Under the pieces are notes generated by a model, which saw nothing but the letters and a program-made list of their open reading frames with translations, did not search any database and was not told the DNA's origin. A stretch of DNA of 64,000 bases from an uncultured Gammaproteobacteria bacterium (GTDB taxonomy: Bacteria > Patescibacteriota > Patescibacteriia > Magasanikbacterales > GWA2-37-8), in assembly GCA_964478235.1 (NCBI GenBank), contig CAYZGX010000001.1:42984-106983 (forward strand). Reading direction: 5' to 3'. Numbering within the stretch: the stretch's first letter is position 1; each line of letters begins with the position of its first letter. Position numbers and translations under genes: made by a program. Positions 49-52,240 of this stretch are shown in pieces.

Positions 49-1215
49 TTATACTATCACATTACGGAGCGCAAGACCAATAGCTGACGACATACGTGGG
101 CCAATAGCGTGTAGAATGGGTTTGAGACTTTCCTGATAGACCACTCTACCCCACGGATCGCCAATATAACAACGCATTTTAAACTTCGTTGCAATATGGT
201 CAGCCAAAAACGGAAACAACGCCGATCCACCGGTAAGAATAATTTTCTCTGGACGTTTATTTTGATTAGCGCTTTGGCGCAAAAATAAATCCAAACTATA
301 TTCCAACTCTTTGAGCACCGGCTCAACAATAGAATTAAATAATTCCAAAAATTGTTCTTTGGTAATTCCGCTATCAGCTGGATTAGCAATCAAGCGAGCA
401 AACATATCACGCTTTAATTGCTCGGTCATAGTGCCTGGCTCAAGTTTCAAAACAGATTCCAAAATAGCATTCATCTTAGCACCACCGCGTTCAATACTAT
501 GGTGGGTAATTGGCACCGCCTGGTCAACAATAAAGAAATTAGTGCGTTGTGCGCCCATATCCACCAAAATAGTAGTGGAAGCATCGCGACCAACAAGCGA
601 ACGAGTGATAGCAATCGATTCTGGCTCGAGCGATTCCAAAGTGAGACCAGCCTGTTGAAAGACTTTAGTATAGAAAACTACCATAGCTCGAGGCACCGCA
701 TTTACCAAAACACGTTGAGACTTGGCCCCAGCTTCGCCAGGCATCACTTGAGAATCAAGCACCATATCTTCTAGAGGATATGGCAACAATTTTTTAATTT
801 CCGCGCGTAAAATACGGTCAAATTCTTCTTTTTTAACAAACGGCATCGTCACAATTGCATGAAACACCGCCGACACCGGCAAGCTAGCTACCGCCGTTGT
901 CGATTGAGTCTTAGCCTGCTTACAAACCGCTCGGAGCATATCGGCATACATGGTAATCTTGCTTTGATCAACCACAATACTCGGAGCAGATTTTCCAGCA
1001 TCCGGCGAACGCATAAACTCATTAGCTTGAATCATTTCGTCAGGCGAAGATGGAACCGTTTTACTGAGCAGCTGATGCACATCGTGATTACCAACAGTAA
1101 AACCGTAGGTAAACAAAACCGGCCGATTCTTTTCGGCTCTCAGTTCGACTACTTTCACACCACCAGCGCCAAGATCGACGCCGAGATATGATTTCGGTTT
1201 GCTAAAAAATGACAT
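49..1215 (-). CDS. pilM: Type IV pilus assembly ATPase-like protein PilM (actin fold)
   Basis: N-terminus MSFFSKPKSYLGVDLGAGGVKVVEL is the classic PilM/FtsA-like start. Length is about 390 aa. Start moved to the internal Met (cat at 1213-1215). Confidence 0.75.
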   Translation of the reverse strand: MSFFSKPKSYLGVDLGAGGVKVVELRAEKNRPVLFTYGFTVGNHDVHQLLSKTVPSSPDEMIQANEFMRSPDAGKSAPSIVVDQSKITMYADMLRAVCKQAKTQSTTAVASLPVSAVFHAIVTMPFVKKEEFDRILRAEIKKLLPYPLEDMVLDSQVMPGEAGAKSQRVLVNAVPRAMVVFYTKVFQQAGLTLESLEPESIAITRSLVGRDASTTILVDMGAQRTNFFIVDQAVPITHHSIERGGAKMNAILESVLKLEPGTMTEQLKRDMFARLIANPADSGITKEQFLELFNSIVEPVLKELEYSLDLFLRQSANQNKRPEKIILTGGSALFPFLADHIATKFKMRCYIGDPWGRVVYQESLKPILHAIGPRMSSAIGLALRNVIV

Positions 1216-1319
1216 AGTTATACATAAGTATACCAAAAAATAACCACTTCAGATAGCCAACTGTTGATAACTCCCGCCAGATAGGCTAGTATACTGAGGT
1301 TATCGTATAACTTCTCTGT

Positions 1320-4091: not shown

Positions 4092-4586
4092 ATGGCTATT
4101 GAAATCAACAAAAATCTAGGTGAATTTGCCGACCAACCGCCAGTTGAGCAGTTTGGAACAAAAGAATCTACTCCCGAACAAGAACCGGTCGAATCGTCCG
4201 ATTCTTTTGAGTCTTCCGAAGAACCAAGCGAAACCACCCCTCCCGCTCAACAACCTCAACAACAAACGCCAACTTCTCGACCACAAGTGACCGTCACCAC
4301 CGCCGACGAACTCACAAGACGAGTAGAAAAAATTATGGAGCAAGATTTGGGTGACGCTTTTAGCCATCTCTCCCCGCTCGCCAAACAAGAATTCAAAATA
4401 AAAGGTGAAAAAACTGCTCGCGCTATTCGCACACTTCTTTCAAAAACGACCCTCAAAGTAAAAAAAGTTTTTGAGCTGATTGTCGCTTGGCTCAAACTCC
4501 TTCCTGGAGTCAATCGTTTCTTTTTAGAACAAGAAGCCAAAATCAAAACAGATCGTATTATTGAACTCCACAGTGAATACCGCTAA
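4092..4586 (+). CDS. Hypothetical acidic/Pro-Gln-rich protein, first gene of operon with the T4CP-like ATPase
   Basis: ORF 3987..4586 trimmed to the ATG at 4092, downstream of a TATACT -10 box. Low-complexity EPSETTPPAQQPQQQTP segment. Stop lies 3 nt before the next start. Confidence 0.5.
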   Translation: MAIEINKNLGEFADQPPVEQFGTKESTPEQEPVESSDSFESSEEPSETTPPAQQPQQQTPTSRPQVTVTTADELTRRVEKIMEQDLGDAFSHLSPLAKQEFKIKGEKTARAIRTLLSKTTLKVKKVFELIVAWLKLLPGVNRFFLEQEAKIKTDRIIELHSEYR

Positions 4587-4589
4587 CGT

Positions 4590-7151
4590 ATGTCTTTTAA
4601 CGACATTCTTAACTTACTCGACATTGCCAACTATACCTCGTCGCCTGAGGCACTCCTTCTCCCCCTAGCTATTCTTGGGGGATTAATCATCTGCGTCATA
4701 GCCGGCCTCTTTATTCTCCGCGGAATTTTTCACAGTCGCACCCGTGAGTTTAAAGCTTTTCACAAAACAATTCTGCTCATCAAAGTTCCTAAAGAGCGCA
4801 AGAGCGACGATCAAGGCAAAGCCAGCGAAGATAACCTCAGCCAAGTTCGCGAACAAATTGCTGTGGCTGAAACGCTTTTTTCAGCTGTCTCTGGTCTCAA
4901 AAAAGAAAAAGGTTTTACCGCTTGGCTCAGAGGTAGAAATGATCATATCTCATTTGAAATCGTCACCAAAAACAATACTATCTCTTTTTATGTTGCTGTC
5001 CCAGACAAGCTGAAAGAGTTTGTTGAACAACAGATTCATGCGCAATACCCACATGCTGAAATCACCACCGAAACTGATTACAACATCTTCCAACCACAAT
5101 GCCACATTGTCGGGGCCAACTTGTGGTTCAAACACCAGTCTGCTCTCCCTTTCAAAACTTACAAAAAAATGGAGAGTGATCCACTGGTCGCCATCTTAAA
5201 CCCACTCAGTAAAATCTCTCCAACTCAAGGAGCGGTGGTGCAGTTTATCGTCCGCCCAACCAGCTCATCCTGGCGCTCTGAAGGTGTTCACATCACCCGC
5301 AAAATTAAAGAAGGTCGTCGTTTTGAAGAAGTTGTTGGCGAAACCGGCCTCACCTCATTTTTACGCGGCTTTGGTAAATTTTTTAGCGTTAAATACGAAG
5401 ATAAGCAACAAAAAAACGGCGCTGGCGAACGCTACCAACTCACCCAAACCGAAGAAGACATGGTGAAAACGATTGAAGAAAAACTCAGTCGCGGCGGTCT
5501 TGAAATAACTATGCGCGTGGTGAGTTCAGCTGAAACAGTAGAAAATGCTCAGCTCAATTTAGAAAATATTATCAATGCTTTTAGCCAATACAACATCTAC
5601 CGCTACGGCAATTCACTGACTGCCGCCATTCCAAGCAAACCGTATGATTTAATCCGCGATTCTATTTATCGCTCGTTTGACAACAACCATCACTACGTTC
5701 TCAACACCGAGGAGCTGGCTAGCTTTTGGCATCTCCCCCTTCCTGGCACCGAAACACCACACATCAACTGGCTCGGCGCTCGCAAAGCTCCTCCACCAAC
5801 CAACATGCCAAAAGAAGGTATTATTCTTGGTCGCACCATGTACCGCGGCGAAGAAACGGTTGTTCGTATGAAACGTGAAGATCGACGCCGTCATCTCTAT
5901 ACTGTCGGTAAATCTGGTAGTGGTAAATCTGTCTTTATCCAAAATCTCGCTGTACAAGATATCCAAAATGGCGAAGGGGTTTGTGTTATCGATCCGCACG
6001 GTGATTTTGTGGAATATGTACTTCAACATATCCCAAAAGATCGCGTTGATGATGTTATCTACTTCAACCCTTCCGATACTGATCGCCCAATCGGCCTCAA
6101 CATGCTTGAAGCTGGAAGTGAAGAACAAAAAGATTTCATTACGCAAGAAATGATCTCCATCTTCTACAAATTGGTGACTGATCCAAGTATGATCGGCCCG
6201 ATGTTTGAACACAACATGCGGAACGTCATGTTAACCTTAATGTCTGACGTAGAGAATCCTGGTACCATCGCCGAAATCCCTCGCATGTTCACCGACGACA
6301 CCTTTGTCGCCGAATGGAAGAAAAAACTCACCGATCCAGTTGTGCTCGCTTTTTGGGAAAAAGAAATGGCCAAAACCAGCGACTTCCATAAATCTGAAAT
6401 GCTTGGCTATCTTATCTCCAAAGTTGGCCGCTTCGTTGAAAACAGCATGATCCGAAATATTATCGGTCAAACTCATTCTGGTTTCAACTTCCGCGAAGTT
6501 ATGGATGGCAAAAAAATCTTGCTCGTTAATTTAGCCAAAGGGTTGGTCGGTGAAATTAACGCCAACCTGCTTGGTATGATTATCGTCTCCAAGCTCCAAA
6601 TGGCTGCGCTTGAACGCGCCAGCATCCCCGAAGAAGACCGTCACGACTTCTATTTATATATCGACGAATTCCAAAACTTCATCACCGATTCTATCGCCAC
6701 TATTTTGTCCGAAGCTCGCAAATATCGCCTGGAGCTGGTTATTGCCCACCAATATATGAAGCAATTAGAAGATAATAAAGGCAAAACCACTGTTCGAGAC
6801 GCCGTGCTCGGCAATGCCGGTACCTTGGTCAGTTTCCGTATTGGTACCGAAGACGCCGACATTCTCGCCAAAGAATTTGCCCCTGTCTTTAGCTCCTACG
6901 ACCTTATCAATGTTGAGCAATATACTGCCTATATTAAACTCCTTATTGACAATACAGCGGCTAAACCGTTTAATATGCTCACCTACCCTCCAATCCCGGG
7001 CAATAAAGAGCTGGCTGCCGCTATTAAAGAGCTCTCCCGCCTCAAATATGGCCGTTCACGTGAGCTTGTCGAAGCTGAAATCGCTGAACGCGCCCAACTT
7101 GGAGTGGCAGTGGCTCAGGCTGACAACAGCCCAAATGAGCCAACCCTCTAA
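4590..7151 (+). CDS. Type IV coupling-protein-like membrane ATPase (TrwB/VirD4/TraD AAD-bind family) with large N-terminal domain of unknown function
   Basis: N-terminal TM segment (LAILGGLIICVIAGLFIL). Walker A in YTVGKSGSGKSVF. VCVIDPHGDFVEYV matches the coupling-protein DPKGD box. Walker B in FYLYIDEFQNF. About 400 aa precede the ATPase and are shared with ORF 12767..14167. Confidence 0.75.
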   Translation: MSFNDILNLLDIANYTSSPEALLLPLAILGGLIICVIAGLFILRGIFHSRTREFKAFHKTILLIKVPKERKSDDQGKASEDNLSQVREQIAVAETLFSAVSGLKKEKGFTAWLRGRNDHISFEIVTKNNTISFYVAVPDKLKEFVEQQIHAQYPHAEITTETDYNIFQPQCHIVGANLWFKHQSALPFKTYKKMESDPLVAILNPLSKISPTQGAVVQFIVRPTSSSWRSEGVHITRKIKEGRRFEEVVGETGLTSFLRGFGKFFSVKYEDKQQKNGAGERYQLTQTEEDMVKTIEEKLSRGGLEITMRVVSSAETVENAQLNLENIINAFSQYNIYRYGNSLTAAIPSKPYDLIRDSIYRSFDNNHHYVLNTEELASFWHLPLPGTETPHINWLGARKAPPPTNMPKEGIILGRTMYRGEETVVRMKREDRRRHLYTVGKSGSGKSVFIQNLAVQDIQNGEGVCVIDPHGDFVEYVLQHIPKDRVDDVIYFNPSDTDRPIGLNMLEAGSEEQKDFITQEMISIFYKLVTDPSMIGPMFEHNMRNVMLTLMSDVENPGTIAEIPRMFTDDTFVAEWKKKLTDPVVLAFWEKEMAKTSDFHKSEMLGYLISKVGRFVENSMIRNIIGQTHSGFNFREVMDGKKILLVNLAKGLVGEINANLLGMIIVSKLQMAALERASIPEEDRHDFYLYIDEFQNFITDSIATILSEARKYRLELVIAHQYMKQLEDNKGKTTVRDAVLGNAGTLVSFRIGTEDADILAKEFAPVFSSYDLINVEQYTAYIKLLIDNTAAKPFNMLTYPPIPGNKELAAAIKELSRLKYGRSRELVEAEIAERAQLGVAVAQADNSPNEPTL

Positions 7152-7160
7152 TCTACTTGT

Positions 7161-8765
7161 ATGACCACTATCTACCGAAAGTACCGCCCACAAACATTTT
7201 CTGCCCTGGCTGATCAGGATCATATTGCAACCACTCTTCAAAATGAAATTATCATGGGCACTATCGCCCATGCCTACCTCTTTTCTGGCCCACGCGGTGT
7301 TGGTAAAACCACCTCCGCTCGTTTGCTCGCCAAAGCAGTCAACTGCACCAAGCGAGACAAAAAAAGCGGTGAGCCATGCGATGCCTGCGACATGTGCCAA
7401 GCAATTAGCGCTGGACGTTGTATCGATGTTATTGAAATTGATGCTGCGTCCCAGACCGGCGTTGATAATGTGCGCGAAAATATTATTGACAACGCGCAAT
7501 TCAAACCAACAAGCGCTGCCTACAAAGTCTTCATCATTGATGAAGTCCACATGTTGTCCACCAACGCTTTCAATGCTCTCCTCAAAACACTCGAAGAACC
7601 ACCAGCTCATGTTGTATTTATTTTAGCCACCACCGAGCTCCACAAACTTCCAGCCACAGTCATCTCTCGCTGTCAGCGTTTTCATTTCAAAAAAATCAGC
7701 TACGACAAAATGCTCGCCACCCTCCAAGATATTTGCGCGCAAGAAGAAGTTGATGTAGCCAAAGATGTTCTTGATAGAATCATTATCAAAAGCGATGGTG
7801 GGCTTCGCGATGCCGAAAGCTTGCTCGGACAAGTCTTGTCACTCCATCTCAAAAAAATTACCGCTCGCGATGTCGAGCTTCTTCTGCCAACCTCCAACGG
7901 CGATAGTATTATTGAATTTTTAGAAACAATTATCCGAAAAAAATCTGCCAAAGACGCACTCACTATAGTTCATCGTCAAATCGACGACGGTGTAGCCCCT
8001 GAGCAATTTATTCTAACCGTGCTTGAAGCTCTCCGCGCCATGCTCACCGTCAAAGCTATCGGTGATACCAAACATCTTGATGTTGATTTTAGCACTTCCG
8101 CCCTCGCTACTATCCAAAAACTTGGCGAACTCGTTGACAACCCAGAGCTTATCGCCATGATTGACGCTGGCATCAAGCGCCGCGTCGAAACCAAACAAGC
8201 CCCACTCCCAGAACTACCGCTGGAGCTATTAACCGTTGAGCTTGTTCTTATCGTTGAAAAAAAGCTTCCTCCACCTCAGATAAAAAACGAACCACTACCT
8301 GAGCCAGTCGTGCGGAAAATCACAACAGCAGAAGCAGCTCCAACACAACCTCCAAAAAATACAGCCAAAGCAATTGTCGAAGCACCAACAGCGCCAACCC
8401 CCGCCGCTGAACTACCAAAAACCACCGTTCGCGGAGGTACTGTCACCACCACCATTGAAGATCTCAAAAAACGCTGGAGCGAAGTAATGACGAAAATGAC
8501 CGAAGTCTATCCATCACTCGTTTTGGTACTCAATATGGCTATACCAAAACAAATTGTTGGCGACCAACTTATCTTGAGTGTTCCCTACAGTTTCCACAAA
8601 GATAAGATTGATGAAGGTAAATCTCGCCGTACGCTCGAGAGTGTTTTAGAAGCTTGTTTTAATGAAAAAATTTTTATATCCTGCACTGTTGATGCTGCCC
8701 CTGCCCCAACCGAGAACGTGATAAATGATCTTGCCTTAGCTTTTGGTGGGCAGGTCGTTGAATAG
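7161..8765 (+). CDS. dnaX: DNA polymerase III subunit gamma/tau
   Basis: YRPQTF...LFSGPRGVGKTTSARLLAKAVNC (Walker A plus zinc module CxxC). DEVHML box. SRCQ sensor. Confidence 0.95.
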   Translation: MTTIYRKYRPQTFSALADQDHIATTLQNEIIMGTIAHAYLFSGPRGVGKTTSARLLAKAVNCTKRDKKSGEPCDACDMCQAISAGRCIDVIEIDAASQTGVDNVRENIIDNAQFKPTSAAYKVFIIDEVHMLSTNAFNALLKTLEEPPAHVVFILATTELHKLPATVISRCQRFHFKKISYDKMLATLQDICAQEEVDVAKDVLDRIIIKSDGGLRDAESLLGQVLSLHLKKITARDVELLLPTSNGDSIIEFLETIIRKKSAKDALTIVHRQIDDGVAPEQFILTVLEALRAMLTVKAIGDTKHLDVDFSTSALATIQKLGELVDNPELIAMIDAGIKRRVETKQAPLPELPLELLTVELVLIVEKKLPPPQIKNEPLPEPVVRKITTAEAAPTQPPKNTAKAIVEAPTAPTPAAELPKTTVRGGTVTTTIEDLKKRWSEVMTKMTEVYPSLVLVLNMAIPKQIVGDQLILSVPYSFHKDKIDEGKSRRTLESVLEACFNEKIFISCTVDAAPAPTENVINDLALAFGGQVVE

Positions 8766-8769
8766 TGCT

Positions 8770-9597
8770 ATGAAAAAAATAACTTTTGCCCTAACCAGTC
8801 TAGCGACCATCGCTCTCACCCCACTCACCGCTCACGGCGCCACTGTCGTTGATTTACCAGTGCCACACATCTGGGAAATTCCCGACGGCGTCTGGGTCAA
8901 ACCGTGGAACAACGCCTGCGAGGAAGCGGCAATTGTTATGGTTGAAGATTTTTACCTCAGCCGCGGAGAAGTGAAACTCCCACCAAAAGAAATTAAAGCA
9001 AAACTATGGCCGTTGTTTACTTGGGAAGACAGAATCTTTGGTAGCAATGCCGACACCGACTCGTTTCGCACCAACCGGATTATTAATGAATACAGTTCAT
9101 TTTCTGGTACCGTAAAAAAGAATCCAACCCTACAAGAAATCAAAGCTGAACTCGACGCCGGACGACCAATTATCTCGTTTCATTACGGTTACGGCCTCAA
9201 CAATCCGCATCACCGTTTCCGTCGGGGCGGCTCGTCCTACCATGTCATTGTTTTGACCGGTTATGACGACACCAAACAAGAATTCATGACTAACGACTCC
9301 GAGATGAAAGATGGGCTTGACTATCGCTACCCATATGCTACTATTATGGACACTTTGCATGATTTCGACCACAAACGAATGAAGGCCGACGGAGTGCCGG
9401 TAGTTATCTTTACTGAGCCAAAACAGCTCGTCAAAGCCGAGGGTGGTAGTCGTCTTTTCTTGATTGAAAACGGCACCAAACGCTACATCACCCATCCAAC
9501 TGTTTTCAAAAATCGTCGCTGGTCGTGGAATGCTATAAAAACAATCAGCAAAGCCACCCTTGATGCCTACCCTACCGGGGAAGCTATCAAGCCATAA
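8770..9597 (+). CDS. Secreted papain-fold peptidase C39-like domain protein
   Basis: Signal peptide MKKITFALTSLATIALTPLTAHGA. Candidate catalytic Cys in WNNACEEAA and His in SYHVIVLTGYDD, which is the typical C39-like GHxVVLxGYD signature. Confidence 0.5.
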   Translation: MKKITFALTSLATIALTPLTAHGATVVDLPVPHIWEIPDGVWVKPWNNACEEAAIVMVEDFYLSRGEVKLPPKEIKAKLWPLFTWEDRIFGSNADTDSFRTNRIINEYSSFSGTVKKNPTLQEIKAELDAGRPIISFHYGYGLNNPHHRFRRGGSSYHVIVLTGYDDTKQEFMTNDSEMKDGLDYRYPYATIMDTLHDFDHKRMKADGVPVVIFTEPKQLVKAEGGSRLFLIENGTKRYITHPTVFKNRRWSWNAIKTISKATLDAYPTGEAIKP

Positions 9598-9605
9598 CCA
9601 CCAAT

Positions 9606-9676
9606 TGCCCGATCGTCTAATGGTAGGACAACGGACTCTGAATCCGTTTATCTTGGTTCGAATCCAAGTTGGGCAG
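9606..9676 (+). tRNA. tRNA-Gln (CUG)
   Basis: Acceptor TGCCCGA/TTGGGCA. 3-bp D-stem. Anticodon loop CTCTGAA. T-loop TTCGAAT. No encoded CCA. Confidence 0.8.
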
Positions 9677-9679
9677 CAC

Positions 9680-9815
9680 AGTTTTTTCAGCCTTGACTAC
9701 CGCAGAGTGTCTGGCGACAGGTCTCCCGGAGGGAGCGCCCCTACACGATGAAGCAGTAGTAATTAAAACCGGCTTTAGAGTCAGGTTTTTTATTTTTAAT
9801 AGCGTTAGCTCATAA
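9680..9815 (+). promoter_or_regulatory. Structured leader with terminator hairpin immediately upstream of the TerC gene (candidate Mn/yybP-ykoY-class riboswitch)
   Basis: GC-rich stems (AGGG-agcg-CCCT etc.) followed by AAACC...GGTTT hairpin plus TTTTTTATTTTT. It ends about 25 nt before the terC ATG, which leaves no room for a separate promoter. TerC genes are typical targets of yybP-ykoY elements. The consensus could not be matched by eye. Confidence 0.3.
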
Positions 9816-9817
9816 CT

Positions 9818-10738
9818 ATGGACATACAAACATTACTCTGGGCAGTCTTTGGGGCTTTGATTGTCGGCTTCTTGGTGGTTGACCTAGGATTTTTTAACAA
9901 GACAAGTCATCGAGTGGAATTTAAATCAGCCCTCTATCAATCACTCTTCTGGGTGGCGATGGCTCTTGGCTTTGGTGCGCTCATTTATTTTTTCCAAGAC
10001 AAAGAATTGGCTGCGCAATTTTTGAGTGCCTACGTCACCGAAAAAATGCTCTCTGTCGACAATTTGTTTGTCATCATGCTTATTTTTAGCTTCTTTAATT
10101 TAGAGGAAAAATATCATCATCGCGTTTTGTTCTGGGGTATCCTCGGCGCCATTGTTTTCCGTGGGGTGTTTATTACCGCCGGATCGCTCATCATCCAACA
10201 ATTCCACTGGGTGCTCTATGTTTTTGGCGCTATCCTGCTCTACACCGGTATTAAACTACTCAACGACAAAAAAGAAGAACATGTCGATTTTAATAACAAC
10301 AAAGTTATTAAGCTCGCTCGCAAATACCTCCCTTTCACTCCGAACCACCACGGTGGCAAATTCTTTCTCCGCGAAAATGGTAAATTCTATTTTACCTCTC
10401 TGTTCCTCACCATCCTCTTAGTTGAAGCGACTGACATTATTTTCGCCGTTGATTCTATCCCGGCAGTCTTTGCTATTTCGCAAAACTTATTCATTGTTTT
10501 CACCTCCAACATCTTCGCTATCATGGGGCTTCGCGCTTTGTTCTTCCTCATTGAAAATGTTTTACACCGCTTTCACCATCTCCAAAAAGGTTTGGCTTTT
10601 ATCCTGGTATTTATTGGGCTCAAAATGCTGGCTGGCATCTTCCATTTTCACCTCTCCTCCATGGTTTCGTTTGGTATTATCATGGGTGCCCTAATCTCTT
10701 CCATCGTTCTTTCAATGATTTTTCCGAAAAAAATCTAA
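9818..10738 (+). CDS. TerC/Alx-family integral membrane protein (putative Mn efflux)
   Basis: Multi-TM protein whose start MDIQTLLWAVFGALIVGFLVVDLGFFNK is typical of TerC family proteins. Confidence 0.8.
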   Translation: MDIQTLLWAVFGALIVGFLVVDLGFFNKTSHRVEFKSALYQSLFWVAMALGFGALIYFFQDKELAAQFLSAYVTEKMLSVDNLFVIMLIFSFFNLEEKYHHRVLFWGILGAIVFRGVFITAGSLIIQQFHWVLYVFGAILLYTGIKLLNDKKEEHVDFNNNKVIKLARKYLPFTPNHHGGKFFLRENGKFYFTSLFLTILLVEATDIIFAVDSIPAVFAISQNLFIVFTSNIFAIMGLRALFFLIENVLHRFHHLQKGLAFILVFIGLKMLAGIFHFHLSSMVSFGIIMGALISSIVLSMIFPKKI

Positions 10739-10800
10739 GCGTTCCCCTTGATTTTTTGCAGAATCTATGCTAGGATAGCCCCATTATTTACTCCCATTCT

Positions 10801-11637
10801 ATGGCCATAATCGACGGTAAAGCCCTTGCCCAAACAATTGAAAAGACTGTCGCTGAACGAGTTTCGCGCCTCAAACAACAAGGAATCACTCCTGAGCTCC
10901 ATGTTATTTTGGTTGGTGAAAACAAAGCTTCACAAAGCTATGTCAACAACAAGGCCAAAGCTGCCCTTCGCGTGGGAATGCATTTTGCGCTCCACGAATT
11001 GCCAGAGACAACCACTGAACAAGAACTTCTTGAAACAATCGCCACCCTCCAACAAAACCCTCGTCTCTCTGGCCTCATTATTCAGATCCCTCTTCCAGAA
11101 CATTTGTATACTGAAAAAGTTTTAAACGCTATTAGACCAGAAAACGACATCGACTGTCTCACCAACACCAATCTTGGTCGTTTGGTTATGAATAATCCCC
11201 TCTTCGTTCCACCAACTCCAGCTGCCGCCATGGCGATTATTGAGCACCTCGGCATGTCTGTCAAAGGAAAAAATATCACGGTCATTGGCACTGGCGCTTT
11301 AGTTGGCAAGCCGCTCGCCATTATGCTCATCAACGCTGGCGCAAGTGTTACGACTATTAACAGCCGCTCCACTAGTGTAGTTGAAAAATGCCTCTCCGCC
11401 GATATTATCATCACCGGCGTTGGCAAGAAAAATATCCTCAAAGCTGAAATGGTCAAACCAGGCGCAGTTGTCATCGACACCGGCTTTGTCTACGAGAACG
11501 GCATTGTCTCTGGTGACACTGATTTCGCTGAAGTCTCAAAAATTGCCGGCCACATCACCCCAACTCCTGGCGGCGTCGGCCCGGTCACTATCGCGCAACT
11601 TCTCACTAACACCGTTCTGGCTCAAGAAAACAAATAA
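10801..11637 (+). CDS. folD: Bifunctional methylenetetrahydrofolate dehydrogenase/cyclohydrolase
   Basis: MAIIDGKALA...LVGENKASQSYVNNK, TGVGK and PGGVGP motifs. Confidence 0.95.
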   Translation: MAIIDGKALAQTIEKTVAERVSRLKQQGITPELHVILVGENKASQSYVNNKAKAALRVGMHFALHELPETTTEQELLETIATLQQNPRLSGLIIQIPLPEHLYTEKVLNAIRPENDIDCLTNTNLGRLVMNNPLFVPPTPAAAMAIIEHLGMSVKGKNITVIGTGALVGKPLAIMLINAGASVTTINSRSTSVVEKCLSADIIITGVGKKNILKAEMVKPGAVVIDTGFVYENGIVSGDTDFAEVSKIAGHITPTPGGVGPVTIAQLLTNTVLAQENK

Positions 11638-11647
11638 CACCCCCTCA

Positions 11648-11680
11648 CAACAACATCTTCCCAGATGTTGTTTTTTTATC
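11648..11680 (+). terminator. Rho-independent terminator after folD
   Basis: ACAACATCT-tccc-AGATGTTGT plus a T-run. Confidence 0.75.
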
Positions 11681-11732
11681 CCTAATCATTGACTTTTGCC
11701 CAGTTTATGCGTATACTATCGGCTCATATCCT

Positions 11733-12725
11733 ATGAAAAACTTCTGGCAAAAACTCAAACGACCTATCTTTGTTCTCGCGCCAATGGCTAATGTCACTGA
11801 CGCGGCTTTTCGTCGTCTCATTGCCAAATACGGCAAACCAGATATTACCTGGACAGAATTCGTCTCCTGCGATGGGCTCCAATCCCCTGGTCGTCCTAAT
11901 ATCATGATTGACCTTAAATACAGCGAAGCCGAACGACCAATCCTCATGCAAGTCTTTGGGTCTAAACCAGAAAACTTCTATAAGACCGCCCTTTTAGCTC
12001 AAGAGCTTGGTTTTGATGGCATTGATATCAACATGGGCTGCCCTGACCGCAATGTAGAAAAACAAGGAGCCGGCGCTTGTCTTATTAAAAACCCAAAACT
12101 CGCTCAAGAAATTATCCTCGCTACCAAACGCGGAGCTGGCGATCTTCCTGTATCTGTTAAAACTCGTATTGGTTACAACAAAAACGAACTTGCCACTTGG
12201 CTCCCGGCTATTCTTGAAACCGAACCAGCTGCTATTACGATTCATTGTCGTACCCGCAAAGAAATGTCGCTAGTCCCAGCTCGCTGGGAACATGTCGCTG
12301 AAGCAGTCGCTCTCCGTGATAAATATAGCTCGCGAGAAAAAACTCTTATTCTCGGCAATGGCGATATTAAAAATATTGAAGAGGGTTACGCTAAAGTAAA
12401 AGAAACTGGAGCTGACGGTGTTATGATTGGTCGTGGTATTTTTGGCAACCCATGGTGCTTTACCAATGTTGATGCTGTACGCGAAGGCCAACCAGATGCT
12501 GCGCCGGTAAGTATTGAAGAAAAACTCCGTGTCATGATTGAGCACACCTATCTTTTCGAAGAATTAATGGTCGCTCACAAGAGTTTTGAAATTATGAAAA
12601 AACACTATAAAGCCTATGTTCATGGTTTTAATGGTGCCAAAGAATTACGCCTCGAACTTATGGAGCAGGCCAAAACTGCCGCTGATGTTGAGCGCATTAC
12701 CAAAAAACACTTTCCCAACCTGTAA
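11733..12725 (+). CDS. dus: tRNA-dihydrouridine synthase
   Basis: FVLAPMANVTDAAFRRL, GIDINMGCP (catalytic Cys), TIHCRTR. Confidence 0.9.
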   Translation: MKNFWQKLKRPIFVLAPMANVTDAAFRRLIAKYGKPDITWTEFVSCDGLQSPGRPNIMIDLKYSEAERPILMQVFGSKPENFYKTALLAQELGFDGIDINMGCPDRNVEKQGAGACLIKNPKLAQEIILATKRGAGDLPVSVKTRIGYNKNELATWLPAILETEPAAITIHCRTRKEMSLVPARWEHVAEAVALRDKYSSREKTLILGNGDIKNIEEGYAKVKETGADGVMIGRGIFGNPWCFTNVDAVREGQPDAAPVSIEEKLRVMIEHTYLFEELMVAHKSFEIMKKHYKAYVHGFNGAKELRLELMEQAKTAADVERITKKHFPNL

Positions 12726-12728
12726 ATA

Positions 12729-12760
12729 AAAAAACTGTACTCTCAAGTACAGTTTTTTTA
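12729..12760. terminator. Bidirectional terminator between dus and the convergent ORF
   Basis: AAAAAACTGTACTctcaAGTACAGTTTTTTT. Confidence 0.8.
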
Positions 12761-12766
12761 TTAGTG

Positions 12767-14167
12767 TTACGCAAACGGCAAATCATCAGGCGCTTCTTCA
12801 TGAGCTGGGGCAGACGGCAAAGGCTCACCCTTTTTACGAAGCGGAATCTCGCTTGTCTCGGTCGGAAGCCCTGCTGGTGGCTCAGATTTCTTGTGCCCAG
12901 CCTTTTGAAGCATCGGGGTCTTCACGAATGGCAATGGGAAGTGCCAAATTGTCGCTAATTCTTCGATATTAAGCACGTACCCGTCACACCCTGCCCATTT
13001 CATCTTACGCCCTTGAAAAGCGCTCATAAAGCTATTTTTGAGGACATTACTCTTCTTATGCTTTGAGTCGTAATGAGCGTGCGTTCCCATGTGTGGAACG
13101 ATAGAGTTGCTGCTCAAAATAGAGAACTGGCCCATCGCCCCAACAAACCCTTCAACACAGCGGTTTGGGCTAAAAACATTCTTCTTGGCAGAATACAACA
13201 GGCGCATTTTAGACTTAAAACCAATCTTAGATAGTTTATCTTCAATAAACTCAATCGTTGTTTTCATACCCGGCGTAAGCGCTTCTGCACTCCCGTGATC
13301 TGCCCCGTGATCGCCGTGCGCCCCTTCAAAGTTCCAGGTAATAATATTACGCAATTCTTGAAGAATAAAATCTGGCACAGCGAGCAGCGCTGCAGCAATA
13401 CCGCCACCATGATGACCGTGGCCACCACCACTCATTAAATCTTTGGCGAGCGCAATCCCCTTTTCTTTCCAACTGTTATCTATTGGTTCAATAATAAGTT
13501 GCATCCAAACATTTTCACCTTTGGCAATGCGAGAGAAGTTTTCCAAAATAGCCGCCATCGGATCGCTAAACACGGCGTCTTTACTCAAATTATATTGAAA
13601 CTCGTCATAGGTGCGGATTGGATATGCATCAGCCGAAGCGAGCTTAAATTCCATACCAAGCAAATCATACTCAGCGTCAGGATATTTGGCAGGAATATTT
13701 GTCACATAGTCTTCCACCTCAGTAATTTGCGCTTCGGTATACTGAGCGTAAATCGCTGCTTCCACCAAATCTTGATATTCTTTTTCAGTCCGAATTAAAA
13801 ACTGAATATATCCCTCAATACTAATAATTTCAAAGCTGAAAGTTTTTTGCTTGTGACCGGTCCAAAATTTAGCTTGAACATCAGCATGACCAAGCGTACC
13901 AGAAATTTGGGCAAAGATCTGCTCCACCGCTTTTGGCGACTGAATAAACATTGGCGGGATATCGACAGCTAGAAGCACCCACTCCCAATGAGCAATACCT
14001 TTTTTAGTACGGTATTCCACCCACATGGCCGCTCCTTTGGTGAACATAAACGAAGCCAACGGCAACCACAAACCAAGCGCAAAAACAACTTTCGCCTGCT
14101 CTAGCAAGGAAAGCCCAAGAAAGGTTGTCCAAAATGACAGATCTATAGTAAGCGTGTCGAAAAACAT
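12767..14167 (-). CDS. Membrane protein paralogous to the N-terminal domain of the T4CP-like ATPase; no ATPase domain; Gly/His-rich segments
   Basis: Blocks shared with 4590..7151: ...SFEII..IQFLI...AQYTEAQITEVEDY vs ISFEIV..ISFYV...AQYPHAEITTETDY, and IEELATIWHFPLP vs TEELASFWHLPLP. The protein ends where the paralog's ATPase begins. Contains GGGHGHHGGG and AHGDHGADHG stretches. Confidence 0.7.
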   Translation of the reverse strand: MFFDTLTIDLSFWTTFLGLSLLEQAKVVFALGLWLPLASFMFTKGAAMWVEYRTKKGIAHWEWVLLAVDIPPMFIQSPKAVEQIFAQISGTLGHADVQAKFWTGHKQKTFSFEIISIEGYIQFLIRTEKEYQDLVEAAIYAQYTEAQITEVEDYVTNIPAKYPDAEYDLLGMEFKLASADAYPIRTYDEFQYNLSKDAVFSDPMAAILENFSRIAKGENVWMQLIIEPIDNSWKEKGIALAKDLMSGGGHGHHGGGIAAALLAVPDFILQELRNIITWNFEGAHGDHGADHGSAEALTPGMKTTIEFIEDKLSKIGFKSKMRLLYSAKKNVFSPNRCVEGFVGAMGQFSILSSNSIVPHMGTHAHYDSKHKKSNVLKNSFMSAFQGRKMKWAGCDGYVLNIEELATIWHFPLPFVKTPMLQKAGHKKSEPPAGLPTETSEIPLRKKGEPLPSAPAHEEAPDDLPFA

Positions 14168-14179
14168 ACCAGTCTAAGA

Positions 14180-14365
14180 CTAATGATGTCCGCCGCCGTG
14201 TCCGCCAGCATCAATAGTTTTGTAAACAAAACCGTAGACAACGAACAGAGCAAAAACTGTCCACCACCAACCGTGGGGTCCGGAAAAATAGCCGGCGGCA
14301 TAGGCCAAACCAGCAATACCAGTGGCCAGTAGCGCCACCAAATGTCGAACAATTGTATCGTTCAT
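14180..14365 (-). CDS. Small two-TM membrane protein with C-terminal GGHGGGHH tail
   Basis: 62 aa from the Met of MNDTIV (cat 14363-14365), with a TATACT -10 box about 20 nt upstream. Two hydrophobic helices. It lies directly upstream of 12767..14167 on the same strand. Confidence 0.5.
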   Translation of the reverse strand: MNDTIVRHLVALLATGIAGLAYAAGYFSGPHGWWWTVFALFVVYGFVYKTIDAGGHGGGHH

Positions 14366-14454
14366 AGGCAAAAATAAGTATGGATAGTATACCACAAGGC
14401 TAGACAAAAAGAAAAACCCCGCCAAGGGCGGGGTTTGAGCGGACGAGCTCGGCT

Positions 14455-15381
14455 TTAGGCCTGAGCACGACGCTCCTGCCAACGCTCCACATATACGAGA
14501 AGCGGACTAGCAATGAAGATAGAAGAATACGTACCACTAGCCATACCCACCAACAAAGCGAGGGCAAAAGCTTTGATAGACTCACCACCAAGGAAGTAGA
14601 GGGCAAACAATGGGAGTAAGACAGTGACCGTAGTGTTAATAGAGCGCATCAACGTTTCATTAAGCGCTAAATCAACAATCGCTGAGAATGTATCAGCAGT
14701 TTTATGCAACACATTTTCACGAATACGGTCATACACCACAATCGTATCAGTCACCGAGAAACCAAGCACTGTCAACAATGCCAAAACAAAGTCAGTCTCA
14801 ATCTCGAGACCGGTAAAATGACCGAGAACAGCAAAAACACCGACCACAATCAGGATATCATGTGCCAAAGCCACAATAGCCAAAGCACCATATTTCCAAC
14901 TAGCAATTGGGCGAGATACTTTGCGGAAAGCGTAGGCGATGTATAAGATGATCGCTAGATTAACAGCAATAATAGCACTCACAGCGCGCTGACGGAGCGT
15001 TTCACTCACTGACGAACCGATAGTTTCCAGGCGTTTTTCAACAAGAGTATTTCCACCAGTAGCGTAGGCATCAGAGAAGGCTTTAAGCACCTTTTGATGC
15101 TGTTCTTCAGTCAAAAAAGTGGTACGGATAATAATATCCGATTCTCCACTACGCTGAACAACTGAATCGCCAGTGACAACTGTTTTAAGTGTTTCTTGCA
15201 CTTGTTCCACCGACGGGCGATTGCTGAAAGACATTTCAATCAAGCTGCCACCAGTGAAGTCAATACCGTATTTAAGGCCCCACTTAGCAATAGCAAGGAT
15301 AGCCACAACGGTCAGTGTACCACTGACTATCAACCAGAACTTTGAATATTTAATGAATGGAATTTTCATATAAAGGGGCAT
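14455..15381 (-). CDS. secF: Protein translocase subunit SecF
   Basis: Typical SecF topology and motifs (DFTGG, VYDRIREN). Confidence 0.9.
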   Translation of the reverse strand: MPLYMKIPFIKYSKFWLIVSGTLTVVAILAIAKWGLKYGIDFTGGSLIEMSFSNRPSVEQVQETLKTVVTGDSVVQRSGESDIIIRTTFLTEEQHQKVLKAFSDAYATGGNTLVEKRLETIGSSVSETLRQRAVSAIIAVNLAIILYIAYAFRKVSRPIASWKYGALAIVALAHDILIVVGVFAVLGHFTGLEIETDFVLALLTVLGFSVTDTIVVYDRIRENVLHKTADTFSAIVDLALNETLMRSINTTVTVLLPLFALYFLGGESIKAFALALLVGMASGTYSSIFIASPLLVYVERWQERRAQA

Positions 15382-17426
15382 TAGGAGCGTTTCGTATAAC
15401 CAAGGAACAACGCGTTAGCTTTGTCATCAAAACGACCAAAGATAAGGCGCATAATCGTGCGGGTCACGGTAATAGCCGAGAACAAACTCATGAGCACACC
15501 TGTCGCGAGCACCACAGCAAAACCTTGGATAAAGCCACCACCAAACCACATGAGCACGATACTACTGATCAAAGTGGTAACGTGACCGTCGCGGATAGAT
15601 GGCCAAGCACGAATAAACGACTCTTCCATCGCACTCTTCAAACTGCGACCATTTTGCAATTCTTCTTTCAAACGCTCAAACACGAGAACGTTCGCATCCA
15701 CCGCCATACCAATAGACAGGATAAACCCGGCAATACCAGCAAGCGTCAAAGTAACACCAAGCACCTTAAACAGCGCCAAAGTAACAAGCGCGTACACAGC
15801 CAGCGAGAAAACAGATAATAAGCCTGGCAAGCGGTAGTAGATAACCATGAATAACATAACCAAGAGAAGACCGGCAACACCAGCTTTAAAGCTTTTTGCC
15901 AAAGAATCCTCACCGAGAGTCGCATCAACTTTTTGCTGACTCAAAAGCTCGACTGGCACAGGAAGTGCACCAGAATTGAGGCGTTGCGACAAAATACGAG
16001 CTTCGTTCAAGGTAAAGTTACCGTTGATAACAGCGCTACCACTGGTAATCGGCTCATTAACCCGAGGAATACTGATTGCTTCGTTATCAAGGAAAATAGC
16101 GACTTCTTTGCCAGAATTACGAGTAGTAATGTCGGCAAACAGTTTTGTACCTTCGTCATCAAACTGAAGGCTCACCTGTACCTGGCCAGTCATACTATCC
16201 TGAGTCACCTCAGCGCGTTTCAATTGCTTACCAGACAAGCCAGTCGTCTTCCAAGGCTCTTGCGGAGGCAAGATATCGGTTTTGTCTTGTGTCTTCAAGA
16301 AAACACGAGCCAAATGATATTGTTTTGGGGTTTCCTGAGCTTTCTTATAGATCAAATGGTACCCGAACTCAGTTTCCACCGGACCAATGATGGTGCCAGC
16401 TTTAGCATCCCAGATAGCATCGGTGAACGCTTTCACCATTGTATCCTTGGTAAAGGTGCCCAAATCGCCAGCTCGGTCAGCTGCACCAGGTTCGGTAGAG
16501 TTTTGCTTCACCAATGTAGCGAAGTTGTAAATAGTTGCTTGTTTTTTGAGGTCATTAATTTTTGCCAACGCCTGTTCTTTGGAATAGATAGGGCTGTCAC
16601 AACGAGAAGCACCAGTATAGCAGATAAGTAAATGGGAGGCGGTGACTTGTTTTTCACCATCGCGCTCAGCTACTTTCTTCAAAATATTATAACCAGAGGC
16701 AGTCTTTACCAAATCGCGACCAACTTCACCAACTCGGCGAGTTTTAGCCCAAGTAAAGAATTCTGGATAAGAGGCTTGAGAAATAAAACCCATATCACCA
16801 CCGGTACTAGTGGTGGTGTCGTCACTATATTTCACGACAACATCTTCAAACTTTCCACCACGACGAAGAGCGGTGAGAGCTTCGTTAGCTTCTTTCAAGA
16901 CACCAGCATTAAAAGTGTCCATTTGTTTCTTTTCAACCGCAGTCAAATCACGAGCTGGCTCATTGTTAGCTTCTTTAAATTCCAAAATTGGTGTCTGACC
17001 AATCATGGTAATAGCCTGGTTCACATCAGTCACACCTGGCAATTCCACAATAATGCGGTAATCGCTACCAACACGGGTAGTTTGTACAATCGGCTCAGCT
17101 ACGCCAAGACCACCGCGAACACGGCGTTCAATAACATCACGAACACCTTCCACCGAGCTAGCTCGGTCAGCATCAGGAATACTGTCGGTTTTTGCTTGGT
17201 AAATCAAATGCGCCCCGCCTTGAAGATCAAGACCGAGGTTAAAACCACTCTCTGAGAGAGTTGGGATACCAATATTAGTCGACTGATTAATCGCGTTAAT
17301 ACCACGATTGATCTGTTTTGGGGCAATAACCACCAAACAAATAATGGACAACGCTACAATCGCAATAAACTTATTGCGCACCTGTTCACGACTTTCCCCC
17401 CTCGTTACCGGTGTTTTTTGAGCCAT
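15381..17426 (-). CDS. secD: Protein translocase subunit SecD with inserted PpiC/parvulin-type PPIase domain
   Basis: SecD TM bundle with the C-terminal GMAVDANVLVFER motif. The periplasmic region contains ASHLLI...GDLGTFTKDTMVKAF...FGYHLIYKK, the parvulin signature (compare E. coli PpiC). Confidence 0.85.
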   Translation of the reverse strand: MAQKTPVTRGESREQVRNKFIAIVALSIICLVVIAPKQINRGINAINQSTNIGIPTLSESGFNLGLDLQGGAHLIYQAKTDSIPDADRASSVEGVRDVIERRVRGGLGVAEPIVQTTRVGSDYRIIVELPGVTDVNQAITMIGQTPILEFKEANNEPARDLTAVEKKQMDTFNAGVLKEANEALTALRRGGKFEDVVVKYSDDTTTSTGGDMGFISQASYPEFFTWAKTRRVGEVGRDLVKTASGYNILKKVAERDGEKQVTASHLLICYTGASRCDSPIYSKEQALAKINDLKKQATIYNFATLVKQNSTEPGAADRAGDLGTFTKDTMVKAFTDAIWDAKAGTIIGPVETEFGYHLIYKKAQETPKQYHLARVFLKTQDKTDILPPQEPWKTTGLSGKQLKRAEVTQDSMTGQVQVSLQFDDEGTKLFADITTRNSGKEVAIFLDNEAISIPRVNEPITSGSAVINGNFTLNEARILSQRLNSGALPVPVELLSQQKVDATLGEDSLAKSFKAGVAGLLLVMLFMVIYYRLPGLLSVFSLAVYALVTLALFKVLGVTLTLAGIAGFILSIGMAVDANVLVFERLKEELQNGRSLKSAMEESFIRAWPSIRDGHVTTLISSIVLMWFGGGFIQGFAVVLATGVLMSLFSAITVTRTIMRLIFGRFDDKANALFLGYTKRS

Positions 17427-17555
17427 AAATAAGACAAGATTAAAGTGCGGGGATTTTAGCGCATTTCAACCATCTTGGCAAGTGGACAAGACCAGTAAAA
17501 AAGACTGATGTGTAAGCCAAAAAAATAACCCTCAGAGAGGGTTATTTTGTAGCAC

Positions 17556-25465: not shown

Positions 25466-25472
25466 ATAGGTA

Positions 25473-52008: not shown

Positions 52009-52240
52009 ACGAATATATTTTTTTACTGTCGAGAGTAAGCTCCCAAGCAATAAAAAAATCTGTGTTATGCCACAGACTAGAATTCCACGTAATCTCGACC
52101 TGAGTGTGCCATTCCTCTAATGAGGAAAAAACACGGGCGATTACCTCGGTAGGATATTTAAGAGAGCCTTGCGAGCTCCCACCTACTGTCTATGGTGTAG
52201 ACACATACTACTAAAAAGACCGGGCTTTGTCAAGACGACT
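52009..52240 (-). promoter_or_regulatory. rplJ promoter and long 5' leader (candidate L10 autoregulatory leader)
   Basis: Minus-strand TTGACA-17-TAGTAT promoter near 52207-52240, about 185 nt upstream of the rplJ ATG. Bacterial rplJ leaders commonly carry the L10(L12)4 binding structure. Confidence 0.35.

Follow-up and report, generated by a model that had tools for sequence, protein, structure and literature searches.

We analysed a 64,000-nucleotide (nt) stretch of an uncultured Patescibacteria (Magasanikbacteria) genome (GenBank assembly GCA_964478235.1, contig CAYZGX010000001.1, positions 42,984 to 106,983; hereafter the window), and we found that it encodes one complete membrane-anchored motor ATPase together with one motor-less copy of its anchoring domain. 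In the ATPase, a protein of 853 amino acids (aa), a single N-terminal transmembrane (TM) helix and a domain of the Pfam family DUF8128 are fused to an ATPase domain like that of VirD4 and other type IV coupling proteins (T4CPs) of type IV secretion systems (T4SSs). The motor-less copy (hereafter the paralog) has a TM helix and the DUF8128 domain. A small gene, here called up199, lies upstream of the ATPase gene and dnaX downstream of it; the paralog gene is preceded by the gene of a mini-protein and by secF, secD and secA. These features are listed in Table 1.

Table 1. Features of the two DUF8128 loci, in positions of the window (res, residues; pLDDT, predicted local distance difference test)
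Feature	Position	Strand	Basis or remark
up199, 164 aa from ATG 4092	4092..4586	+	small conserved partner gene; stop 3 nt before fused ATPase
Type A fused DUF8128/T4CP-like ATPase, 853 aa	4590..7151	+	Pfam, NCBIfam, homologues
Single N-terminal TM helix of fused ATPase, res 22-45	4653..4724	+	hydropathy scan; helix 19-56 in model
DUF8128 domain of fused ATPase, res ~58-409	4761..5816	+	fold like VirB4 N-terminal domain
VirD4/T4CP-like ATPase domain, res ~411-831	5820..7082	+	Pfam and NCBIfam hits; motifs
Walker A GKSGSGKS, residue 440	5907..5930	+	motif scan of fused ATPase
Walker B YLYIDE, residue 688	6651..6668	+	motif scan of fused ATPase
dnaX	7161..8765	+	Pfam; starts 9 nt after ATPase stop
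Bidirectional terminator-like hairpin ACTGTACT-CTCA-AGTACAGT	12734..12753	.	A run and T run flanks; read from sequence
Type B adaptor (paralog), stand-alone DUF8128 protein, 466 aa, without ATPase domain	12767..14167	-	
Extreme C-terminal motif PDDLPFA of paralog, after disordered tail	12770..12790	-	family consensus PPx(N/E/D)LP(F/Y/I/V)x-end
Gly/His/Asp loop 2 of paralog, GAHGDHGADHGSA, res 282-294	13286..13324	-	pLDDT<50 at 281-293
Gly/His loop 1 of paralog, SGGGHGHHGGG, res 246-256	13400..13432	-	pLDDT<50 at 251-256
N-terminal TM helix of paralog, res ~25-48	14024..14095	-	hydropathy scan; helix 21-58 in model
Mini-protein, 61 aa, two-TM hairpin	14180..14365	-	start ATG 14365; stop 12 nt before paralog start
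Candidate extended -10 element TGgTATACT	14386..14394	-	consensus resemblance only; 20 nt upstream of mini-protein ATG
Strong intrinsic-terminator-like hairpin, 10 bp, 7 G-C, then T run	14414..14436	-	between secF stop and mini-protein gene
Conserved upstream context secF, secD, secA	14455..20336	-	Pfam
secF	14455..15381	-	Pfam
secD with inserted PpiC-type peptidyl-prolyl isomerase (PPIase) domain	15381..17426	-	Pfam
secA	17556..20336	-	Pfam

The first-pass annotation of the window had proposed a homologous N-terminal domain in the two proteins. The significant pairwise alignment that it had named beforehand as decisive was found: residues 94-409 of the ATPase aligned with residues 82-437 of the paralog at 116 bits (BLASTP, E = 9e-32, 26% identity over 357 columns), and the shared domain comprises about 350 aa. 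The sequence blocks that had been quoted for it (SFEI, AQYP/AQYT..EIT and EELA..WH.PLP) are invariant or near-invariant columns in the alignments of the DUF8128 family. In precomputed Pfam annotation, the near-identical cluster representatives of both proteins carry PF26449 (DUF8128); this assignment is indirect, read from representatives P0001 (97% identical) and P0121 (98%) of the window proteins. Direct Pfam and NCBIfam scans of the shared domain found nothing, the Pfam scan because the copy used does not contain the PF26449 model. The domain is therefore not novel as a sequence family, as had been supposed: a profile search of 1.84 billion representatives gave 3,632 DUF8128 clusters at 50% identity. 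Most of the best 150 clusters consist of stand-alone proteins (420-690 aa); two contain fused proteins of about 858 aa. DUF8128 is not mentioned in the literature searched, and to that extent the idea that the arrangement belongs to no described system stands. It does not stand in full, since the domain is already catalogued as DUF8128 and orphan T4CPs have been reported (PMC12102498).

The fold of the domain is not new either. Two independent models and two search methods agreed that DUF8128 has the fold of the N-terminal domain (NTD) of VirB4. EccE, a membrane subunit of type VII protein secretion, ranked second among the structural matches. Since the structural hits include no P-loop ATPases, it is the NTD of VirB4 that is matched, not its motor. 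Furthermore, a search of the DUF8128 profile against PDB sequences gave only noise, so the link to VirB4 is structural only.

The motor half of the fused protein has another affinity. The ATPase scored 40.3 bits against TrwB_AAD_bind (cut-off 20.5), 33.5 bits against T4SS-DNA_transf (20.1) and 28.5 bits against TraG-D_C (22). Thus, the three hidden Markov models (HMMs) that the annotation had proposed as a check all reached their gathering scores, in the 853-aa protein only, and the supposed relatedness of the module to T4SS ATPases is supported. In a profile search of the PDB, TrwB was found at E = 2.9e-7 and VirB4 was not. PADLOC gave weak HerA/mad8 matches to the motor, with no defence-system context. 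Because the fold of the NTD is VirB4-like while the sequence of the motor is T4CP-like, the fused protein is a chimera in design, with a VirB4-type N-terminal domain and a VirD4/T4CP-type motor. At least 120 cluster representatives of it are 71-98% identical, all are about 850 aa long, and all carry PF26449, PF10412, PF01935, PF02534 and PF12696; more distant representatives are 56-58% identical over the full length. The basic residues after the TM helix suggest, by the positive-inside rule, that the ATPase is oriented N-out/C-in.

The up199 protein has an acidic, Pro-rich N-terminal part and a conserved helical C-terminal part (...PGVNRFFLEQEAKIKTDRII...), and it has no Pfam or NCBIfam match. 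By tblastn, 15 Magasanikbacteria loci have its gene ahead of that of the fused ATPase, and the remaining loci are truncated. The C-terminal 83 aa are still 53% identical in L091 and L092, beside a fused ATPase that is only 56% identical. On the other side, dnaX adjoins the fused ATPase in 23 of the 23 loci where it was seen, and it is near again in L091. An open reading frame (ORF) for a C39-like peptidase (8743..9597, plus strand) overlaps the end of dnaX by 23 nt and keeps its place close to the module at other loci, L001 for example. Next in this plus-strand row come tRNA-Gln (9606..9677) and the genes of a TerC protein, folD and dus.

In the paralog, a motif scan found no P-loop, in line with the earlier view of a second protein without a motor. 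However, the paralog does not stop exactly at the boundary of the ATPase domain, as had been claimed, because the homology ends at about residue 437 and about 30 disordered residues follow. An ending of the [DNE]LP type was found in 91 of 120 Magasanikbacteria-type homologues and in 104 of 136 family representatives, and a looser LP ending in 115 of the 136. We infer that the C-terminal PPxxLP motif of the stand-alone adaptors is a candidate docking motif.

The mini-protein has the conserved core RHLVA..AGY.SG..GWWWT..VYG.VYK.ID and a variable Gly/His (G/H) tail. Its gene was found directly upstream of the paralog in all 77 species-level loci with DNA available, which makes it a genuine conserved partner; it is also present in L093, although gene calling had missed it there. 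The first-pass annotation was right that this is a real two-TM protein, and its extent has to be taken as 61 aa from ATG 14365 instead of the longer ORF 14180..14482 (100 aa), the upstream part of which is the secF terminator hairpin read as protein. No family in the libraries scanned matched the mini-protein. Its own HMM found nothing in the split-type loci described below or among 149 DUF8128 family representatives, and no copy fused to or near DUF8128 was found outside the Magasanikbacteria-type clade. The hairpin at 12734..12753 lies between the convergent stops of dus (12725) and the paralog (12767). Together with the candidate -10 element and the 12-nt gap between the two genes, it suggests that the mini-protein gene and the paralog form a self-contained two-gene unit. 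This unit adjoins secF in 68 of 70 Magasanikbacteria loci. In addition, secD-secF lie upstream of stand-alone DUF8128 genes in several other lineages. The PpiC-type PPIase (rotamase) insertion of SecD spans residues ~246-361, within the periplasmic P1 region, and a SecD with such an insertion recurs in the Patescibacteria loci L001, L085, L086 and L093.

In other lineages of Patescibacteria, the stand-alone DUF8128 gene is followed, after a few to about 30 nt, by the gene of a soluble ATPase, here called ATPase-B (L084, L085, L086/87, L088, L094 and L096). Residues 12-431 of ATPase-B, its N-terminal motor, are 43% identical to residues 403-831 of the window ATPase. There are two paralogous modules, type A being fused and type B being split, and since adaptor and motor occur either fused or split they presumably work together (a Rosetta-stone relationship). 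The word 'split' therefore has another sense here than in the earlier annotation: the stand-alone protein is the adaptor half of a second paralogous module, whose ATPase half is encoded immediately downstream in other lineages. In the Magasanikbacteria clade, the ATPase-B gene is not adjacent to the adaptor, and the mini-protein gene is found upstream instead.

The ATPase-B family gave 7,192 hits; a typical member is 480-506 aa long and has a CxxC-x17-CxxC zinc ribbon at its C-terminus, and the tails of some members are long and very basic. The best 120 matches were all from lineages other than Magasanikbacteria. The type B ATPases of L085 (6223..8658) and L086 (7020..9767) have C-terminal extensions of 400-500 aa that are extremely Lys/Glu-rich and end with GQSV(H/K)FD, and that of L085 has repeated CxxC...CxxC zinc-ribbon motifs. 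At L095 (8001..10889), a soluble type B ATPase has no adjoining DUF8128 gene; scpA starts 5 nt on and is followed by scpB, both coding for kleisin subunits of SMC, and the three genes lie downstream of a ribosomal-protein/secY/adk/map cluster. Just upstream of the stand-alone DUF8128 gene, non-Magasanikbacteria lineages have a gene for a protein of 344-390 aa with Sigma70_r4 and a faint HARE-HTH match (L086 3830..5002, L096 5540..6574 and the JGI contig of P0355).

The closest public DNA comes from metagenome-assembled genomes (MAGs) of Candidatus Magasanikbacteria, which belong to the Patescibacteria class ABY1, and L004 is 97% identical at the protein level. Many such Magasanikbacteria-like MAG records (L004, L006, L009-L011 and others) are titled 'uncultured Gammaproteobacteria bacterium', and the Magasanikbacteria-like DNA of L062 is titled 'Candidatus Udaeobacter sp.'; these records look mislabelled. 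In at least 80 species-level genomes, both loci are intact, chromosomal and syntenic among housekeeping genes. The two loci are vertically inherited across these genomes, and the synteny bears out the earlier opinion that they are chromosomally fixed and not mobile. No VirB4, VirB6 or relaxase gene was found among the window ORFs scanned, and no relaxase or T4SS channel gene in the 10-kb flanks of those homologous loci whose genes were examined. The earlier statement that such genes are missing holds for the window, but related Magasanikbacteria have a canonical VirB4/TrsD/VirB3 cluster elsewhere in the genome, together with VirB2 homologues and several T4CP-like genes (PMC12102498 Table S3).

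Relatives of the module were also found in phages and plasmids. The fused ATPase matched PHROG 5156 at E = 3.4e-86 over residues 96-835, and tblastn found full-length homologues in Bacillus phage G (gp156), SP-10-like Bacillus phages and Geobacillus phage D6E (ORF23). The DUF8128 profile matched residues 17-324 of gp156 with a probability of 98.8% and D6E ORF23 with 97.2% (hhalign). The proteins of PHROG 5156 have the same fused DUF8128 and ATPase architecture as the window ATPase, but they are phage-borne and about 20-24% identical to it, and an N-terminal TM helix is absent from both the phage and the archaeal versions. The D6E gene lies between an actin-like partition gene and an integrase gene. 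Upstream of gp156, gp155 of phage G is a VirB4-like ATPase (P-loop_TraG/AAA_10), which gives a VirB4 and T4CP-like pair (L099 3243..7385); as a DUF8128 protein, gp155 was rejected (hhalign probability 0.6%). The N-domain also matched about 20 haloarchaeal plasmids and two Bacillaceae megaplasmids. One haloarchaeal plasmid has a split form, in which the gene of a 352-aa DUF8128 protein overlaps that of a 913-aa ATPase. On plasmid pHAR01 of Halorubrum salinarum (L101 7689..14912), we found a fusion of 2,407 aa with a DUF8128-like region at residues ~105-374 and an ATPase domain at ~700-1100, followed by about 1,300 more residues. Thus, the module is mobile-element-borne elsewhere, yet chromosomal, syntenic and TM-anchored in Patescibacteria.

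Among known proteins, VirB4 (for example TrwK of R388) has the N-terminal fold that DUF8128 also has, with no detectable sequence similarity between the two domains. VirB4 assembles as a hexamer of dimers, in which the NTDs join the paired protomers, are embedded in the membrane and bind VirB3 and VirB8 (PMC12857230). However, the window motor is unlike the VirB4-type ATPase: it scored 13.2 bits against TIGR00929 (cut-off 643) and had no CagE_TrbE_VirB or AAA_10 hit. Furthermore, the window proteins carry their own N-terminal TM helix and are not encoded with VirB6, VirB8 or pilins. The T4CPs VirD4, TrwB and TraD are closer to the motor, which matches T4CP HMMs with both Walker A and Walker B present, and TrwB is its best solved relative by sequence. 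However, T4CPs have a short two-TM anchor before the motor and no VirB4-NTD-like domain, whereas the window ATPase has one TM helix and a DUF8128 domain in this place. The best scores against the NCBIfam T4CP models (TraD, CD1115 and related ones) were 52.7 bits (cut-off 366) and 37.5 bits (cut-off 250). Unlike T4CPs, the module also occurs in a split form of adaptor and motor, and it has no relaxase or T4SS linkage in the window ORFs scanned. The motor also remained below the threshold of FtsK/SpoIIIE (15.9 bits, FtsK_SpoIIIE Pfam cut-off 24). A recent survey reported 5,713 VirD4-like T4CP homologues in 2,918 Patescibacteria genomes, of which only 148 were near virB4, and its authors suggested exaptation (Quiñonero-Coronel et al., PMC12102498). 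The window ATPase is probably among these orphan homologues. The N-domain, the stand-alone paralog and the split form were not described in that survey.

The closest functional analogue is the archaeal DNA importer CedB/CedD of Sulfolobales, judged from its architecture. Both proteins combine a TM helix with a VirB4-NTD-like domain and an ATPase; their genes are chromosomal and non-mobile, occur together as a pair of paralogues and are required for DNA import (bioRxiv 10.1101/2024.09.27.615246). The window proteins share this design, including the chromosomal location and the paired paralogues, as a resemblance and not as membership. The Ced ATPase is of the FtsK/HerA superfamily, with an assembly proposed to be like that of VirB4 dimers; the Ced motors are HerA/VirB4-like, whereas the window motor is T4CP-like. 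In NCBIfam, the window ATPase scored 26.6 bits for CedD (cut-off 600) and 18.2 bits for CedB (700), in the Walker A region only. In addition, there is no gene of a CedA/VirB6-like channel beside the window genes, and unlike in CedB/CedD one of the window paralogues is without a motor.

For the paralog, TrsD of pGO1 and its Patescibacteria homologues offer a parallel, as they too are stand-alone relatives of the VirB4 N-terminal domain without an ATPase and are common in Patescibacteria. However, TrsD homologues lie next to virB4 and match PF11130/FATA_trsD, and in Magasanikbacteria they are separate genes; the paralog has DUF8128 only, and its neighbours are secF and dus. For the mini-protein, the VirB3/PrgI/TcpE-type proteins are similar in being small, with two TM helices and short cytoplasmic ends, and in being encoded upstream of a VirB4(-NTD)-like gene. 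The virB3 product is a small two-TM protein whose gene lies next to virB4, and a two-TM protein has been proposed as the anchor of the pIP501 T4CP (PMC12857230). The latter protein, TraI, is likewise small with two TM helices. However, VirB3-type proteins are usually of 10-15 kDa, and the mini-protein is half of this size, has no C-terminal helix and is restricted to the Magasanikbacteria-type clade.

Taken together, we propose that the two loci are probably two paralogous modules of a membrane-tethered motor that would move a polymer, most likely DNA, independently of the canonical T4SS, a motor made of a DUF8128 adaptor with the VirB4-NTD fold and a VirD4/T4CP-type ATPase. The homology, the fold, the domain architectures, the relationship of fused and split forms, the synteny and the distribution are observed, and the oligomeric arrangement, the partner contacts and the substrate are drawn from analogy. 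Type A would be the complete enzyme, co-encoded with up199 and dnaX, and its single TM helix would place DUF8128 and the motor in the cytoplasm. By analogy with the VirB4 NTDs, the DUF8128 domains may pair protomers and hold a hexameric ATPase ring at the cytoplasmic face of the membrane. In type B, the TM-anchored DUF8128 protein would recruit a separately encoded soluble ATPase. The adaptor of the window would be co-transcribed with the clade-specific mini-protein, which is VirB3-like in position and topology and may stabilise the stand-alone adaptor, and the C-terminal PPxxLP motif may dock the ATPase partner. This partner would be the type B motor itself or, in the Magasanikbacteria clade, possibly the type A protein. 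The motor is predicted to pump a polymer across or at the membrane without a canonical T4SS. Our best guess, by analogy, is that this polymer is most likely DNA, because the motor is of the T4CP type with a DNA-binding-type domain and ATPase-B has zinc ribbons and basic tails. In addition, the neighbours dnaX (type A) and scpA-scpB (ATPase-B of L095), the phage and plasmid relatives beside partition or VirB4-like genes and the Ced analogy point to DNA.

Several observations weigh against this proposal. The resemblance to the VirB4 NTD is structural, at about 10% identity, and DUF8128 gave no VirB4 hit at the sequence or profile level in searches that included PDB sequences. In the full-length AF2 model of the ATPase, the motor half has pLDDT<50, which makes it useless for telling a VirB4-like from a VirD4-like motor by structure. 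Where genomes are compact, having dnaX or scpAB as neighbours counts for little. The annotation of FtsK in Patescibacteria leaves no obvious need for another segregation pump, and it weakens the idea that the module replaces FtsK. The terminator between secF and the mini-protein gene means that the Sec linkage is maybe positional only. In a related Magasanikbacteria genome, three T4CP-like hits neither prove nor exclude a type B ATPase. Finally, we found no experimental datum on any DUF8128 protein in the literature searched.

Other explanations were considered. The fused protein could be the T4CP of the canonical Patescibacteria T4SS encoded elsewhere, serving VirB4/VirB6, with the paralog and the mini-protein as accessory T4SS subunits. 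The scores of the motor against the T4CP-family Pfam models, including TraG-D_C, and the VirB4, TrsD, VirB3 and VirB2 homologues of related Magasanikbacteria would fit this, and T4CP genes are often far from virB4 (PMC12102498). However, a T4CP does not begin with one TM helix and then a cytoplasmic VirB4-NTD-like domain of 350 aa, the NCBIfam T4CP equivalog scores are all far below their cut-offs, and each lineage has two paralogous modules with conserved neighbourhoods unrelated to T4SS. Furthermore, the T4SS of S. epibionticum is essential, yet its locus has no recognisable coupling protein (PMC10633639), and one T4CP-like gene of this species is dispensable. We thus regard this explanation as rather unlikely. 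A serious rival, although a quite unlikely one in our estimate, is that the modules act on proteins, as motors for the extraction, dislocation or export of pilins or membrane proteins tied to the Sec machinery. It arises from the secDF synteny and from the resemblance to EccE: the order secD-secF-(x)-DUF8128 is kept in the Magasanikbacteria loci counted above and in several other lineages, and a role in protein dislocation or export has been proposed for VirB4, the protein whose NTD fold DUF8128 has. However, in the window the strong terminator stands between secF and the mini-protein gene, L095 and L096 have no secDF next to the module, and the phage and plasmid homologues have no Sec context. 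The T4CP-like rather than VirB4-like sequence of the motor and the zinc ribbons and basic tails of ATPase-B also speak against a protein substrate.

The remaining two explanations are much less probable. The region could be what is left of a phage or plasmid, domesticated or in decay, with the paralog as a degenerating gene without function, as the full-length homologues in Bacillus and Geobacillus phages and on haloarchaeal plasmids might suggest. However, both genes are intact and syntenic in the genomes mentioned above, and the paralog keeps the invariant residues and the terminal motif across its whole family of clusters. The window ORFs scanned include neither an integrase nor any other gene of mobile elements, and the GC content of the region (0.44-0.47) agrees with that of the rest of the window. 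Among 2.9 million viral contigs, there was a single hit, to a chimeric-looking fragment. On synteny, GC content and the lack of mobile genes in the ORFs scanned we reject a mobile-element origin of this locus, and we consider it very improbable. The viral fragment (L097 21..536, the only IMG/VR hit) carries a fused DUF8128-ATPase piece with a break in composition at about position 500 and phage-structural-looking ORFs beyond it, and is probably a chimeric assembly. The first-pass annotation had further drawn attention to Gly/His segments and to possible metal binding. The segments are indeed present, in the two paralog loops and in the tail of the mini-protein. It is extremely improbable, however, that they form a metal site (Ni/Zn/Co) which determines what the module does. 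Four or more His are found in the loop region of about half of the Magasanikbacteria paralogs, and the His contents of mini-protein tail and paralog loops show a weak correlation (rho 0.24, p 0.036, without correction for phylogeny). However, the stretches lie in disordered segments and differ in length and position among homologues, both paralog loops being variable. Only 8 of 75 mini-protein tails have two or more His, a single one of the 149 family representatives has G/H runs, and the fused ATPase has none. These runs are lineage-specific, found in a minority of Magasanikbacteria homologues, and the Gly/His features are not defining for the module. Thus, metal binding as a core feature was rejected, resting as it does on unconserved, disordered low-complexity stretches.

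Returning to the T4SS-independent motor modules, published transposon sequencing (Tn-seq) of S. epibionticum offers a comparison. SEML1_0142 was essential at all three time points; it codes for 1,019 aa with a P-loop domain at residues 381-800 and was flagged as 'core family' and 'Patescibacteria enriched', and a small gene that lies 12 nt before it is also essential. SEML1_0293 was non-essential; it codes for 921 aa with TrwB_AAD_bind at residues 402-719 and adjoins the essential sigma-factor gene SEML1_0294. In architecture and neighbours, SEML1_0142 and SEML1_0293 may parallel type A and type B, respectively. As a wider and tentative reading, which we think possible but somewhat doubtful as a whole, the modules of DUF8128 and T4CP-like ATPase would be an unrecognised T4SS-independent translocase of Patescibacteria, a bacterial counterpart of CedB/CedD that shares ancestry with the phage and plasmid versions and exists as two ancient paralogous systems. 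Type A would be fused and possibly essential (cf. SEML1_0142), and type B would be split and dispensable (cf. SEML1_0293). The type B adaptor of Magasanikbacteria would have gained a two-TM subunit as its new partner, and its motor would be either that of type A or a relocated ATPase.

Some other features of the window may be mentioned. The GC skew is negative in 31 of 32 bins of 2 kb and the cumulative skew falls almost monotonically, so the window lies within one replichore and contains no origin or terminus. Rfam found only six tRNAs and an L10 leader (52044..52213). At the left edge lies a PilM-type type IV pilus assembly gene (49..1236, minus strand), the partner genes of which would be outside the window. 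The ORFs 48746..51046 (plus strand, 766 aa), 46195..47736 (minus strand, 513 aa) and 24083..25543 (minus strand, 486 aa) had no Pfam hit at E<=1e-5, and an ORF of 480 aa next to the 513-aa ORF is DUF4012.

Much of the diversity of uncultured bacteria belongs to Patescibacteria, whose tiny genomes carry about two 'orphan' T4CP-like ATPases each (PMC12102498). In the literature searched, we found no description of the anatomy of these proteins, of their organisation in two modules, of their partner genes or of their links to mobile elements. Our results give them an anatomy, with a VirB4-like adaptor and a VirD4-like motor in two ancient paralogous modules of fused and split form. In addition, candidate partner subunits (up199 and the two-TM mini-protein) and a candidate docking motif can now be named, and the orphan T4CPs can be connected with homologues on phages and plasmids and with the Ced DNA importer of archaea. 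The role of these proteins in Patescibacteria thereby becomes a matter of testable predictions; Saccharibacteria are now open to genetic work, and the published Tn-seq data suggest that one such gene is essential. Furthermore, the chimera of a VirB4 NTD and a VirD4 motor bears on how the two ATPase families of T4SSs diverged.

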